DNA of 64,000 nucleotides from an uncultured Rhodobacteraceae bacterium. Lineage in GTDB: Bacteria; Pseudomonadota; Alphaproteobacteria; Rhodobacterales; Rhodobacteraceae. The stretch spans positions 15,719 to 79,718 of the forward strand of contig CANLND010000011.1 in the NCBI GenBank assembly GCA_947492585.1, given 5' to 3'. A program made the translations under genes and the position numbers. This document shows, piece by piece, positions 6,260 through 56,504 of the stretch. A model generated the notes under the pieces. It saw only the letters and a program-made list of their open reading frames with translations. It did not search any database and was not told the DNA's origin. Every line of letters begins with the position of its first letter. Within the stretch, counting starts at the first letter, position 1.

Positions 6260-6402
6260 CAGCAAAAAACAACCCGATTTTGGCCAAAAACTGCCTGAAA
6301 CCCCAGTGTTTGCTGCGACATTGCGTTGTGTTGGACCACTACATACCGCTAATGTTGCGCGATGAGACCCTACACATCGGGCAGTTCTAAGGAGAAATAA
6401 CA

Positions 6403-6696
6403 ATGTCCAAACCGATGACCAAAACACAGCTGGTCGCCGCACTGGCTGACGAAATGGACAGCGACAAGAAAACCGCGGGCGCTGCGCTGGACGCCGTCTG
6501 TGGCTTGATCACCCGCGAAGTTTCTGGCGGTGGTGCTGTCACCCTGCCCGGCGTTGGCAAAATCTACTGCCGCGAGCGCCCCGAGCGCGAAGTGCGCAAT
6601 CCCGCCACCGGCGAGAAGTTCATGAAAGAAGCAGACAAGGTTGTGAAAATGACCATCGCCAAAGCGCTGAAAGACAGCGTCAACGGCGAAGCCTGA
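6403..6696 (+). CDS. HU/IHF family DNA-binding protein
   Basis: MTKTQLVAALA..VTLPGVGK..R..RNPATGE..KALKD; RBS AAGGAG. Confidence 0.9.
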   Translation: MSKPMTKTQLVAALADEMDSDKKTAGAALDAVCGLITREVSGGGAVTLPGVGKIYCRERPEREVRNPATGEKFMKEADKVVKMTIAKALKDSVNGEA

Positions 6697-13723: not shown

Positions 13724-16700
13724 TTACTCTGCTGGAATGGCCGCGGCCTCGGCCACAATCGGGTGCACCAGCTTGTCCAGCATCTCCTTGGGGCAGACCT
13801 GAACAAAGTTGGCCTTTTCGGTGTCCCAATGCTGCAAAATCTCAGCCGCCTTACGGCTGCCAGTTTCCGCAAGATGCTGTTCAATCAGGCCTTTCAGCTG
13901 ATCTTCCCAATGCGCCACGGTCACGGCGCAGGTCACCACGCCCTCCATGTTCATCAGGTCCTCGGCATTTTCTTCTGGGTCATACAGATACGCCATGCCG
14001 CCGGTCATCCCAGCGCCAAAGTTGGCCCCAATGGAGCCCAGAATAACCGCCACACCACCGGTCATGTATTCACACCCGTTAGAGCCACAGCCCTCGATCA
14101 CCACTTTGGCGCCCGAGTTGCGCACCGCAAAGCGTTCACCGGCACGACCCGCGGCAAACAGATAGCCATCGGTGGCACCATACAGAACTGTATTGCCGAT
14201 GATGGTGTTTTCCGAGGCCTGCAACGGGCTGACCTGCTGCGGACGCACCGTGATGGTGCCCCCCGACAAACCCTTCCCGACATAGTCATTGGCATCGCCC
14301 GAGACTTCCAGTTTCAGGCCCGGCGCGGCAAAGGCGCCAAGTGACTGACCAGCAGACCCTTGCAGCTTCACCGTCAGGTGATCGGATTGCAGCGTGTTGC
14401 GCATACCAAAGTTGCGCACAATGTGGCTTGAGGTGCGTGTGCCCACGGTGCGATGGGTGTTTTGCACCGCATAAGACAGCTGCATCTTTTCACCATCCTG
14501 CAAGAAGCGCGCCGCATCACGGACAATTTCGGCATCCAGCGTGTCTGGCACTTCGTTGCGACCGCGTTCACGGTTGTAAACAATATCATGCGCACCATCG
14601 ACGGTGATCAACAGCGGGTTCAGGTCCAGATCGTCCAGATGCGCTGATCCACGTGAAACTTGTGCCAGCAAATCAGCGCGGCCGATGACCTCATCCAAGC
14701 TGCGCGCCCCGATGGAGGCCAGAATTTCACGGACTTCCTGCGCATAGAATGTGATCAGATTCACGACCTTATCTGCATTGCCGGTGAACTTACCGCGCAG
14801 ATCGTCATCCTGAGTACACACGCCCACAGGGCAAGTGTTGGACTGACACTGGCGGACCATGATGCAGCCCATCGCGATCAATGCGGCGGTGCCGATGCCG
14901 TATTCCTCGGCCCCCAGCATCGCTGCCATAACAATATCCCGACCAGTGCGCAGACCGCCATCGGTGCGCAACGTCACCCGGTCCCGCAGGTTGTTCATCG
15001 CCAGAACTTGGTGCGCTTCGGTCAGGCCCATTTCCCACGGCAAGCCGCAGTATTTGATCGAGGTCGCAGGCGACGCCCCGGTGCCGCCATTGTGACCCGA
15101 AATCAGGATCACGTCGGCTTCGGCCTTGGCCACACCAGCTGCGATGGTGCCCACACCAGACGCCGCCACCAGTTTCACAGTCACCTTACAACGTGGGTTG
15201 ATCTGCTTCAGATCGTAGATCAGCTGTGCCAGATCTTCGATCGAATAGATGTCGTGGTGCGGCGGAGGTGAAATCAGCGTCACGCCTTTGGTCGAGTGAC
15301 GCAGACGTGCAATCAGGTCGGTGACCTTCATCCCCGGCAGCTGGCCACCCTCGCCGGGTTTCGCGCCCTGTGCGACTTTGATCTCCAGCTCTTCACACTG
15401 GTTCAGGTATTCGGCAGTGACCCCAAAACGACCAGAGGCGACCTGTTTGATCTTGGCCGACGGGTTGTCGCCATTGGGTTCGGGGTGGAAATGTGCGGGA
15501 TCTTCGCCGCCTTCACCAGAATCTGACTTGGCCCCAATTCGGTTCATCGCCACGTTCAGGGTTTTATGCGCCTCAGGCGACAACGCCCCCAGCGACATGC
15601 CCGGAGTCACAAACCGCTTGCGGATCGACGTGATAGATTCGACCTCTTCCAGCGGCACAGCCTCACCCAAAGGTTTGATGTGCAGCAGATCGCGCAGGTG
15701 GATCGGCGGATTTGATTGCATCTTGGCGGAATACTGCTTCCACAGCTCAAACGACGCTTTGTTACACGCCATCTGCATCATATGCATCGAGGTCGCTTCC
15801 CAGGCGTGGGTCTCGCCGGTTTTACGCGCCTTGTAAAAGCCACCGATGGGCAAAATGCCTTCGGCCATGCCCCAACCTTTGGCGTGTATTTCTTCGGCCT
15901 TGGACTGAATACCAGTCACACCAATGCCGGAAATACGGCTGGTCATGCCGGGGAAGAATTCCGCACACATGGCGCGCGACAGACCCACGGCCTCAAAATT
16001 CAAGCCCCCGCGATATGACGAAACAACCGAAATGCCCATTTTGGCCATGATCTTCAGCAGACCCTGATCGATCGCCTCACGATAGCGCGCGACGTTTTCG
16101 GTCAACGTACCATCCAGCAGACCACGCTCAATACGATCCGCCAGTGAATCTTCGGCAAGATAGGCGTTCACAACGGTCGCACCACAGCCGATCAGCACGG
16201 CAAAATAATGCGGATCCATACATTCAGCAGCACGCACGTTCAGCGAACAGAAGGTACGCAGACCCTTGCGGGTCAGATGACTGTGCACCGCGGATGTCGC
16301 CAGAATCATCGGCACCGACACTTTGTCAGCGCTGGAATATTGATCGGTCAGCACAATGTGGCCAGCCCCCGAACGCACCGCCTCTTCGGCCTCGGCGCGG
16401 ATCCGGTTCAAGGCCGCGTTCAGCGCGCCCGTGCCCGCTTCAAACGAACAGTCGATTTCCGCCAATGGCGCCGCAAACTGCTCCACCAGCTTGTCCCATT
16501 GGGCGTTGCCAACAAATGGGCTTTCTAGAACGATGATCTCGGTCTGGCTGCTGTCTTCGTCCAACACGTTTTTCAAGTTCCCAAAACGCGTTTTCAGCGA
16601 CATCACCCGGAATTCACGCAGGCTGTCAATCGGCGGGTTGGTCACCTGGCTAAAGTTCTGACGGAAGAAATGGCTCAGCGGGCGATACATCTTGGACAGA

Positions 16701-54443: not shown

Positions 54444-54504
54444 AAAAAAACGGGCGCGCGGCCCGTCGAAAATTCCGGTGGTGTATCAGGCTCCAGAGCC
54501 CGAC
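54444..54504 (-). promoter_or_regulatory. rimP leader: upstream hairpin plus intrinsic terminator (attenuator)
   Basis: On the minus strand hairpin GTCGGGCTC-TG-GAGCCTGAT, then ACGGGC-CGCGC-GCCCGT with a T7 tract ending 15 nt before the rimP ATG. Confidence 0.7.
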
Positions 54505-54522
54505 GCGCCGCTGTTGAGCCGT

Positions 54523-54551
54523 TATATAGGCCCATGGGGGCGAATCTGCAA
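54523..54551 (-). promoter_or_regulatory. Promoter of the rimP-nusA-infB operon
   Basis: On the minus strand TTGCAG-N17-TATATA (also TTG-N18-CCTATAT). Confidence 0.6.
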
Positions 54552-54702
54552 GGGAAACCTCATCCGCGCCAGGCCGGGACACCGCAGCACCTCTGAGCAA
54601 ATTTTTTCAATAATTTTCTGAATAGCAATCGTGCTTTGAGTGTTTTCCTAATGTCGGACCTCGGCACCTTATTTGGAACCTATTAAAATGGATAACGTCT
54701 TC

Positions 54703-55638
54703 ATGCGGACCTCACAGCTTACACGCTCATCGATTCTTGCGCTCTTTCTGTCATCAACCCCACTGTGGGCCAACACGTGGGTCTTGAACGCCGATCAGTC
54801 CACTCTGGCGTTTGGGTCGATCAAAAAAGAGACCGTTGGCGAAACTCACAGCTTTGAAACGCTATCTGGTACGGTCAGTGCCGCGGGCGCCGTGGACATC
54901 GCGATCTCTTTGCCCTCGGTAGAAACATTCATCGACATCCGCAACGAACGCCTGATCGAACATGTGTTCAAAGGCGCCGAAACCGCCAATCTGCGGGCTG
55001 CTGTGGATATGAACGCGCTGAACGCGCTTTCGGTGGGGGATCTGCTTATGACAGATGTCGCGGCCACGTTGTCCTTTTTAGGACGTGAGATCCCGGTCGA
55101 TGCAGAACTGGTTCTGGCCCGTCTCAGCGCAACAAAGGTGATGATTTCAACCGCAAATATGGTCTTTGTCACCGTCGAAGATGCCGGCATGTCGGACGGC
55201 ATCGATGTTTTGCAGTCCCTGGCCAAGCTGAGTGGCATCACCCGCACCGTTCCCGTTACCGCCCGTCTGGTATTTGAAACAGACGGCGAGTCTGCGGCTG
55301 TCCTCACTGAAACTCCTGTAGCCGTAGCCACGGCTGGAGACGCAGAACGGGGCAAGAAGATTTTTAAGAAATGCAAAGCCTGCCACGTGTTGGATGAAGG
55401 CAAACACCGCACCGGGCCCAGCCTTCATGCAGTAGTTGGCAAACAGGCAGGCACAACAGATGGGTACAAATATTCCAAAGCCTTCAAAGAGGCCGATTTC
55501 ACCTGGAGTGAAGAGGCTCTGGGTGCGTTTTTAGCGAAACCGCGCAGCTATCTAAAGGGAAATAGAATGGCGTTTCCCGGCCTCAAAAAAGAAAAAGATC
55601 GACAGGACCTGATCGCCTATTTGCGTACCGCGGAATGA
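54703..55638 (+). CDS. YceI-like lipid/quinone-binding domain fused to a class I (c2-type) cytochrome c
   Basis: Signal peptide; W.L....S.LAFGSIKK..H.F..LSG..SVETFIDIRNERL (YceI); C-terminal GDAERGKKIFKKCKACH..GPSL..WSEEAL..P..G.RMAFPG. Start 54703, alternative 54688. Confidence 0.85.
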   Translation: MRTSQLTRSSILALFLSSTPLWANTWVLNADQSTLAFGSIKKETVGETHSFETLSGTVSAAGAVDIAISLPSVETFIDIRNERLIEHVFKGAETANLRAAVDMNALNALSVGDLLMTDVAATLSFLGREIPVDAELVLARLSATKVMISTANMVFVTVEDAGMSDGIDVLQSLAKLSGITRTVPVTARLVFETDGESAAVLTETPVAVATAGDAERGKKIFKKCKACHVLDEGKHRTGPSLHAVVGKQAGTTDGYKYSKAFKEADFTWSEEALGAFLAKPRSYLKGNRMAFPGLKKEKDRQDLIAYLRTAE

Positions 55639-55647
55639 GTTGGTTCA

Positions 55648-55672
55648 GGTGGATGGGGTTAGCCCATCCACC
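55648..55672. terminator. Hairpin between the convergent cytochrome fusion and SBP genes
   Basis: GGTGGATGGG-GTTAG-CCCATCCACC, a 10-bp stem overlapping the SBP stop codon. Confidence 0.55.
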
Positions 55673-56504
55673 ACCGCTCAACGATGCGGCCATCATCTAG
55701 CGCAGACTGAACACCGATTTTGCGCGGCACCCCGACCGCGGATTTAGCCGCGAGAGCCATTTCATGGGCCGAGGGATGAAAGAACAACGCCCGGTGCTCC
55801 AGCAGGGTATCCGGCGTCGGCAGCGCGGCGACATCAACAAAACCGTCCCGCAAAGCTTCGGCACGGGCTGTGTCATCGGGAATCACGATAATCTCAACCG
55901 CATCAAACCAGCCCGCGTGCCCATCTTTATAGTGCACAGGCTTACGCTCTGCCCGAAAATGGCGGCCGGCCTGTGCCCGCACCACCCTGTAACACCCGGT
56001 GCCATCGGCCTGATCCAGCGGATCAACCGGTGCGCCGTTTGCCGTGATAACATGGGCCTGGTCCGCCAGAAGATATGGCAGCTGCGGGTTTGGCGCGTCC
56101 AGTTCAAGCCGGACTTTATGCGGGCTGACCACCCAGACCCCCAAGATTTCGCTCTCGCGCAATGGCATACGCAGTATAGAGGCTTTGACGTCATGTGCGG
56201 TCATCAATTGGCCTGACTGGAATCGCGCATCCTCTCGCAGATCAAAAGTCCACACCCGCGCATCCATACTGGCGCGCCAACTGGTTGCCAGTTCCCCGCG
56301 CACCACGCCGTCAGGGCCAATTTCAGTGAGCGCATCAAACAGCGCCCAGCGCGCCACGCGCTCCATTACGTCATCTGCGCGCGGCACGGCCAGACGCAAA
56401 ACCCCGCCGGGTTGTGGCGTCGCCTGCACCGCAGCCCCCGTGGCCGCCAGCAAAGCAGCAGCAGCACCAGAGGTAAACAGGGCACGGCGATCAAGGCGCG
56501 TCAT
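55659..56504 (-). CDS. Short family-5 (peptide/nickel) ABC substrate-binding-like protein with Tat signal
   Basis: Tat motif DRRALF, PQPGGVLRLA, GELATSW, WTFDLREDARF.SG..MTAHDVKAS, GTGCY, WFDAVE, ARAEALRDG. Only 281 aa. Confidence 0.8.
   Translation of the reverse strand: MTRLDRRALFTSGAAAALLAATGAAVQATPQPGGVLRLAVPRADDVMERVARWALFDALTEIGPDGVVRGELATSWRASMDARVWTFDLREDARFQSGQLMTAHDVKASILRMPLRESEILGVWVVSPHKVRLELDAPNPQLPYLLADQAHVITANGAPVDPLDQADGTGCYRVVRAQAGRHFRAERKPVHYKDGHAGWFDAVEIIVIPDDTARAEALRDGFVDVAALPTPDTLLEHRALFFHPSAHEMALAAKSAVGVPRKIGVQSALDDGRIVERWWMG

Follow-up and report, generated by a model that had tools for sequence, protein, structure and literature searches.

We have found that a gene in a 64,000-nucleotide stretch of the genome of an uncultured Rhodobacteraceae bacterium (positions 15,719 to 79,718 of contig CANLND010000011.1, assembly GCA_947492585.1; this whole stretch is called the window below) codes for a compact protein in which a YceI-type barrel of the X158 kind is joined by a linker to an intact class I cytochrome c. 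The gene belongs to a conserved family, and at most of the related loci compared here it lies beside genes for an extracytoplasmic function (ECF) sigma factor and an anti-sigma-like protein and carries a promoter-like motif upstream. The family seems to be switched by an ECF sigma factor and is, therefore, probably a membrane-protecting periplasmic redox device. In its full form, to which we give a probability of about one half, our reading is that the protein is a soluble, stress-induced device whose haem exchanges electrons with a lipid bound in the barrel, serving as an inducible defence or repair of envelope lipids.

YceI proteins are widespread, but what they do biochemically is, to our knowledge, still ill defined. 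In the model that currently serves best, they bind lipid and act together with a cytochrome to keep membrane lipid peroxidation in check (PMC9113575). The pairing of a YceI barrel with haem is an established theme, and the domain pair itself was already known, since it occurs in the protein Cbp2D and automatic annotation had noted both halves of the family described here. We found no study of the compact YceI-cytochrome c family in the literature, and in no paper did we find its periplasmic character, its split and barrel-only variants, the ECF pair with an unclassified sensor domain or the promoter-like motif.

The domain layout given in the original prediction (signal peptide, YceI-type barrel, flexible linker and intact class I cytochrome c) was borne out, and the CKACH haem motif, the distal methionine in RMAFPG and the linker segment AAVLTETPVAVATA (residues 197-210) stand exactly where it had placed them. 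Pfam profile Cytochrom_C (PF00034) matched residues 214-310 with E 1.9e-9 and 39.2 bits, above its cut-off of 21.3, phmmer aligned residues 212-310 with horse mitochondrial cytochrome c (E 1e-27), and Foldseek gave the C-terminal domain a template modelling (TM) score of about 0.9 to mitochondrial cytochrome c and to Paracoccus c552. By its CXXCH motif, distal Met, fold and profile score this domain is a class I c-type cytochrome. It is 51% identical to the corresponding domain of a membrane-anchored cytochrome c of the same genome (C3:51175-51900), in which an acidic, Ala-rich linker connects the cytochrome c domain with a transmembrane helix. The N-termini of the relatives resemble that of the window protein, with a positive start, a hydrophobic core and an end of A-x-A type, and CcmE is encoded on contig C9 of the same genome, suggesting that the protein is exported to the periplasm and receives its haem through the Ccm system.

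The barrel was assigned by sequence and by fold. Residues 26-193 matched in phmmer the X158 domain of a Saccharophagus degradans cellulose-binding protein (PDB 2x32/2x34; E 7.5e-28, 38% identity), which the PDB entry names 'polyisoprenoid-binding domain'. An AlphaFold model built on 30 relatives had a mean predicted local distance difference test score (pLDDT) of 80.8 and a predicted TM score (pTM) of 0.55; pLDDT lay at 85-93 for the two domains but fell under 50 for the signal peptide (residues 1-23) and the linker (196-210). In Foldseek the modelled barrel matched 2x32/2x34 and the Pseudomonas syringae YceI-like protein 3q34 with TM scores of 0.92-0.95 and root-mean-square deviations (rmsd) of 1.0-1.2 Å. 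The canonical members E. coli YceI (1y0g), TT1927b (1wub), HP1286 (3hpe) and BcnA (5ixh) were matched at TM 0.68-0.80, with probability 1.00. The domain has, in consequence, the lipocalin-like eight-stranded antiparallel barrel of the YceI superfamily and belongs by sequence and structure to the X158 subfamily, and it is presumed to form a pocket for an isoprenoid lipid or a quinone. A Pfam scan found no carbohydrate-binding module, the context in which X158 was named, in the window protein. The linkers of the family measure 19-28 residues (about 19 in the window protein), consist of Ala by 36% and have no conserved sequence, so that the segment looks like a flexible tether.

A sequence search returned 457 relatives, and the closest 100 or so were nearly all 290-330 aa long and matched over their full length; they carry generic names such as 'c-type cytochrome' and, once, 'cytochrome c2/polyisoprenoid-binding protein YceI'. 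Thirty aligned members share 44 invariant residues, among them C224, C227, H228 and M289 of the cytochrome and the IDIRNER motif of the barrel, and the fusion architecture is conserved far beyond chance. A scan with one genome per species located relatives in 311 genomes. The best 80 of these are almost all marine Rhodobacterales (Ruegeria, Leisingera, Tritonibacter, Roseobacter, Sulfitobacter, Ascidiaceihabitans, Neomegalonema, Pontivivens), together with Pseudovibrio and single metagenome-assembled genomes of Kiloniellales and Rhodospirillales. The architecture is not a one-off. Its spread is patchy: when one genome was taken for each of 201 genera of the window's own family, only five held the fusion at full length, and in about 15 a barrel of the same subtype occurs on its own.

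The same barrel appears with and without its partner. In a library clustered at 50% identity we found 1182 representatives with a related barrel (E <= 1e-3); the best 150 are mostly stand-alone proteins of about 195 aa, and seven combine barrel and cytochrome c, so that these fusions occupy at least seven clusters at 50% identity. The best 150 also include P0253 (312 aa), an X158-like barrel fused to a PCuAC copper chaperone (Pfam E 8.5e-27), a further tie of this type of barrel to respiratory or periplasmic redox machinery. Two long barrel relatives that we scanned (1156 and 764 aa) resemble Cbp2D/E, with CBM2, PKD and YceI domains and, in one of them, a cytochrome c. In a tree of the N-domain, fused and unfused forms interleave over a base without resolution, which is compatible with a single origin. 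A further variant comes from a genus (genome G098) in which barrel (197 aa) and cytochrome c (140 aa) are separate adjoining genes, each with its own signal peptide, followed on the same strand and in one operon by the sigma and anti-sigma genes. Judged by gene order, this split version shows that both domains and the regulators belong together, and the two domains appear to work as a pair, be it fused or as neighbours.

The linkage to regulators was counted over 80 related loci. In Leisingera, Pseudovibrio and Thalassococcus the fusion gene is divergent from an ECF sigma gene, which is followed by a gene of about 250 codons without Pfam match, whose product begins with an anti-sigma-like region, crosses the membrane by one helix and ends in a periplasmic domain. 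Such a pair immediately adjoins the fusion gene in 57 of the 80 loci, and a stand-alone X158 barrel gene in another genus (genome G084) has the same divergent pair. The latter locus also holds, next to that pair (L089, 782-3652), a second ECF sigma gene and then a gene for an anti-sigma factor that looks ChrR-like by eye, from its N-terminal motif. ChrR-type anti-sigma factors are known from the singlet-oxygen response. Between rimP and the fusion gene there is no sigma/anti-sigma pair in the window or in its nearest relative; the window's genome keeps the orthologs on another contig (C4:88227-89543; locus L006, 6228-7543), a sigma factor of 187 aa and an anti-sigma factor of 251 aa that are 64% and 39% identical to those of Leisingera. 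We found no description in the literature of the ECF group, signal or regulon of this sigma factor, and profile scans against Pfam and NCBIfam assigned the anti-sigma factor to no family. The model of its periplasmic domain (residues ~112-251) reached pLDDT 92-97, and this domain has invariant W116, Y123, Y127, R170 and Q172 and a single invariant cysteine, C197. A thiol- or lipid-based input would be our guess.

The second line of evidence for regulation is a two-block motif of consensus CATCGAATAAA-N14-GTGTTT, located 70-110 nt upstream of the gene in 66 of the 80 loci, with a spacer of 14 nt in 57 of the 58 unique sites. The strict pattern was single, and at this upstream place, in the great majority of the loci of about 9 kb, where chance would give some 2-3 strict matches over all 80 (an extrapolation from the composition-based expectation of 12 for the window's own genome). 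That genome (3.59 Mb) has 8 strict matches, one of them the window site, which ends 59 nt before the start codon. The window gene has the conserved upstream motif expected of a regulon member and may depend on the sigma factor. A match to GGAAC-N16-CGTC that overlaps the start codon (54675-54699) resembled a classic ECF promoter; we discarded it, since the nearest relative has not kept it and no room would be left for a leader. Three Pseudovibrio genomes (L054, L072 and L083) have a second strict motif about 1.5 kb downstream of the fusion gene, at ~6393-6417 on the + strand.

We examined 12 genomes in which the fusion gene has no adjacent pair for co-occurrence of motif and anti-sigma gene. 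All seven with the motif have an anti-sigma ortholog elsewhere, and of the five that lack the motif four lack such an ortholog too. Of the evidence at hand, this pattern speaks most strongly for the motif as the promoter of the linked sigma factor. In the two loci where the sigma genes lie 3' of the gene on the same strand, the upstream site reads GAATAA-N14/15-CGTTTT and would also drive the sigma gene, which would allow autoregulation in the operonic variants only. A second match in the window's genome (GAATAA-N13-GTGTT) lies 68 nt before a stand-alone canonical YceI gene (motif and gene, C1:139502-140160, locus L087 3003-3661; gene, C1:139570-140160). This gene codes for 196 aa (Pfam YceI E 5e-21) between prpE-like and maeB-like genes, and its closest ortholog, in Tritonibacter multivorans (L096), carries the motif too.

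Put together, these data suggest the following course. After Sec export and attachment of haem by Ccm, the X158-type barrel would hold a long-chain isoprenoid lipid, most likely ubiquinone/ubiquinol or an oxidised membrane lipid, with the class I cytochrome c hanging from it on a flexible tether of about 20 residues. The haem would couple the bound lipid to the pool of periplasmic c-type cytochromes, either accepting electrons from a bound quinol or donating them to a bound semiquinone or lipid radical. UQ-10 is the ubiquinone of the group to which the window organism belongs. The fusion gene would be an output of a dedicated envelope-stress pathway of ECF sigma and anti-sigma factor acting through the GAATAA-N14-GTGTT promoter, a pathway that in the window's genome would act in trans and would also control the second, stand-alone YceI protein. 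The protein may thus be the c-haem counterpart of the YceI/cytochrome b561 (BcnA-LcoA) system. By its potential, a class I cytochrome c is able to take up electrons from quinol or to pass them to semiquinone, peroxyl and other radicals. These limits of midpoint potential, taken with the ECF control, favour inducible protection or repair of the envelope over core respiration.

Two precedents stand closest, and a relay between a barrel-bound quinone or lipid and haem c, as the original prediction proposed, is plausible by analogy with both (PMC8981238; PMC9113575). The X158 domain is YceI-like and binds polyisoprenoids, with ubiquinone-8 in one of its two structures, and in Cbp2D X158 stands alongside c-type cytochromes, from one of which lytic polysaccharide monooxygenases (LPMOs) receive electrons (PMC8981238). 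Compared with the X158 domains of Saccharophagus degradans and of Cellvibrio japonicus Cbp2D and Cbp2E (2x32, 2x34), the window barrel is 38% identical with an rmsd of 1.1 Å and, like that of Cbp2D, shares one polypeptide with a c-type cytochrome. Unlike Cbp2D/E, the window protein is small, has a Sec signal only, lacks CBM2, PKD and FN3 and has a single cytochrome of mitochondrial/c552 type, in a genome free of LPMO genes and under predicted ECF sigma control. In the second precedent, BcnA (a YceI-family lipocalin) and LcoA (a cytochrome b561) protect the membranes of Burkholderia cenocepacia from lipid peroxidation (PMC9113575). Here too a lipid binder of YceI fold is paired with a haem protein and there is a link to envelope oxidative stress, but the partner in the window protein is a fused, soluble domain with covalent c-type haem, not a membrane b-type cytochrome, and with BcnA and E. 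coli YceI the barrel shares just 12-15% identity. E. coli yceI-yceJ is grouped with the BcnA-LcoA type.

No b561 gene lies near the fusion gene in the window. Elsewhere in the same genome (C9:113870-115282, + strand) a frame of 471 codons holds a membrane domain of cytochrome b561 type (Ni_hydr_CYTB) that is tied through a His-rich linker (GHTHHHADGHSHAPP) to a YceI domain, and a second YceI gene (C9:115514-116002, - strand) lies divergently beside it. By domain content, this one genome holds both b-haem and c-haem YceI fusions. YceI barrels recur, as these cases illustrate, with redox partners: in Cbp2D-like proteins, with PCuAC, with b561 and in BcnA-LcoA.

Several points weigh against the proposed device. 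All members of the family are known here from sequence and models alone, and the promoter motif is a computational prediction, with no copy before the sigma gene in the window's genome nor on the sigma-gene strand of the divergent loci. The Pfam YceI profile (PF04264) reached the barrel only below threshold (18.0 bits against a cut-off of 23.7, E 0.004); the X158 match (E near 1e-27) and the fold superposition nevertheless make the N-domain one of YceI type, and many relatives of the fusion protein do exceed the cut-off. A class I cytochrome c, at about +250 mV, cannot reduce ubiquinone, at about +90 mV, which limits the reactions that can be proposed. The original prediction had looked to AlphaFold for a distance between haem and barrel, and none could be obtained, as with a disordered linker and a pTM of 0.55 the model does not predict the placement of one domain relative to the other; direct electron transfer between haem and barrel is, for this reason, an assumption. 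Finally, a fold search with the sensor domain of the anti-sigma factor returned only RseB/MucB, marginally (E 2e-3 over ~85 columns), and thus no informative relative.

The strongest rival, which we nonetheless consider unlikely, is a respiratory cytochrome that carries electrons from the bc1 complex to terminal oxidases or reductases, with the barrel in place of a transmembrane anchor, tying the carrier to lipid of the membrane, and a ligand that takes no electrons. The identity of 51% to the membrane-anchored cytochrome c with the acidic Ala-rich linker fits such a carrier, as do the resemblance of the Ala-rich tether to the linkers of anchored cytochromes, a fold neighbour described as Paracoccus c552 'with its flexible linker segment' and the fusion of a related barrel to PCuAC, an oxidase copper chaperone. 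Like the membrane-tethered c552 of Paracoccus and CycM, the window protein has a homologous cytochrome c domain (about 45-51% identical), an Ala-rich flexible linker and an N-terminal holding module; unlike in them, this module is a soluble lipid-binding barrel and not a transmembrane helix. The cytochrome cy of Rhodobacter is a further membrane-tethered cytochrome of this kind. Against this rival, stand-alone X158 barrels that have no cytochrome share the sigma pair and the motif, and for that reason the barrel would not be just an anchor. The cytochrome of the split version, moreover, has a cleavable signal peptide only, and dedicated ECF control with a patchy spread (5 of 201 genera) fits an accessory stress role better than core respiration.

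The tight gene linkage with the sigma/anti-sigma pair could also mean that the protein lies at the input of the pathway, as a periplasmic co-sensor that signals its lipid occupancy or haem redox state to the anti-sigma factor, in the manner of RseB and RseA. The periplasmic domain of the anti-sigma factor, which would receive this signal, is confidently folded, with an invariant single cysteine, and its weak structural neighbours are only RseB/MucB. The architecture of the pair resembles RpoE-RseA-RseB modules in its ECF sigma factor, in an anti-sigma factor with N-terminal anti-sigma domain, one transmembrane helix and a periplasmic domain, and in the two-block promoter-like motif ahead of a target gene; it differs from them in that the anti-sigma factor belongs to no Pfam or NCBIfam family and its periplasmic domain, with the invariant Cys, has no close solved relative. 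We regard a co-sensor as quite improbable: the similarity to RseB is marginal, and the fusion gene bears the motif and retains it in genomes that have the pair at another place, which is the mark of a target of the regulon, although the roles of target and feedback can coexist. A miniature Cbp2D feeding electrons to LPMOs for the oxidation of extracellular polysaccharides is suggested by the closest solved relative of the barrel, which comes from such proteins, and by the reduction of LPMOs in vitro by one of the cytochromes of Cbp2D, but we rejected it as almost certainly wrong, since the window protein lacks a carbohydrate-binding module, the genome is without an LPMO_10 gene, the neighbours of the fusion gene are housekeeping genes and the cytochrome domain is of mitochondrial/c552 type.

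The inducible lipid-protecting device, which we prefer to these rivals, can also be put in a bolder form that we find doubtful. The protein would then be a self-contained soluble 'quinone protein', in which ubiquinol or semiquinone held in the barrel exchanges electrons directly with the covalently tethered haem c, so that it acts in the periplasm as a lipid-radical (or quinol):cytochrome c oxidoreductase. Its induction would follow when oxidation of envelope lipids is sensed, through the invariant periplasmic Cys, by an anti-sigma factor of an undescribed class. If this were true, a protein of the YceI family would have its first defined biochemical reaction, and the envelope-stress circuit would be a new one; should the protein be no more than a respiratory carrier on a tether, it would be a minor architectural variant. 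In this family one small soluble polypeptide carries both a lipid binder and a c-type haem that is easily followed by spectroscopy, the natural split and barrel-only versions are controls, and the sigma/anti-sigma switch should let the response be turned on genetically. A direct test of electron exchange between a YceI-bound quinone or lipid and haem is therefore feasible, and the family could reveal an envelope-stress pathway in the abundant marine roseobacters.

The features located in the window are collected in Table 1.

Table 1. Features of the fusion gene and its flanks, in window coordinates.
Feature	Position	Strand	Remarks
Predicted ECF-type promoter GAATAG-N14-GTGTT (GAATAGCAATCGTGCTTTGAGTGTT)	54620..54644	+	-35 block 54620-54625, -10 block 54640-54644
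Coding sequence, YceI(X158)-cytochrome c fusion, 311 aa	54703..55638	+	stop codon included
Sec-type signal peptide, residues 1-23 (...STPLWA|NTW), no lipobox cysteine	54703..54771	+	read from sequence
X158-type YceI-like eight-stranded beta-barrel, residues 24-193	54772..55281	+	phmmer and Foldseek
Flexible Ala/Thr/Val/Pro-rich linker, residues 194-211	55282..55335	+	low pLDDT, sequence variable in the family
Class I (mitochondrial / c2 / c552-type) monohaem cytochrome c, residues 212-311	55336..55635	+	Pfam, phmmer, Foldseek
Haem attachment motif CKACH (C224, C227, H228)	55372..55386	+	invariant in 30 relatives
Distal haem ligand Met289, in NRMAFPG	55567..55569	+	invariant in 30 relatives
Inverted repeat GGTGGATGGG-gttag-CCCATCCACC, between convergent genes	55648..55672	.	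read by eye

The open frame that spans the fusion gene has 321 codons (54673-55638, + strand), and translation from the ATG at 54703 gives the 311 residues. A public protein collection contains a form of 316 aa (P0002), 100% identical to the window protein, whose length fits a start at ATG 54688. The nearest relative (protein 74% identical) has an indel of 1 nt between both ATGs that puts the upstream one out of frame, and we rejected it as the start. Because only the downstream ATG is in frame there, ATG 54703 is likely the true start, and the comparison indicates that P0002 is five codons too long.

As originally described, the fusion gene stands alone between rimP and a convergent gene. An origin as an accessory insert gained recently by horizontal transfer is not supported: its G+C content equals that of the flanks, and the order infB-nusA-rimP...pip-ubiG is common to Leisingera, with synteny extending also to the nearest metagenomic relative. 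In Leisingera the order is infB-ylxR-nusA-rimP-[anti-sigma-sigma]-gene-SBP5-aminopeptidase-ubiG (SBP5, family-5 solute-binding protein), and the wider synteny is the same in the window. A functional tie to the nearby ubiG was considered and abandoned, as Pseudovibrio and Thalassococcus have other downstream neighbours. The inverted repeat is a possible, if weak, candidate for the shared transcript end of the convergent genes; it does not appear in the output of the terminator scan because it has no T run.

The convergent neighbour (55659-56504, - strand) codes for a 281-aa protein with a twin-arginine-like signal (RRALFTSGAAAALLAATGAA) whose match to the profile of family-5 solute-binding proteins covers positions 2-182 of 368, only the first half. 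Leisingera and the nearest relative have proteins just as short (281-287 aa), so that the truncation is not a recent one. A stretch of about 130 nt by the rimP start, upstream of that gene (54444-54575), is strongly conserved with the nearest relative and contains, on the minus strand, a G+C-rich hairpin with a T run after it (54467-54449). It could serve the rimP-nusA-infB operon as leader or attenuator, or be what is left of the terminator of the lost anti-sigma gene.

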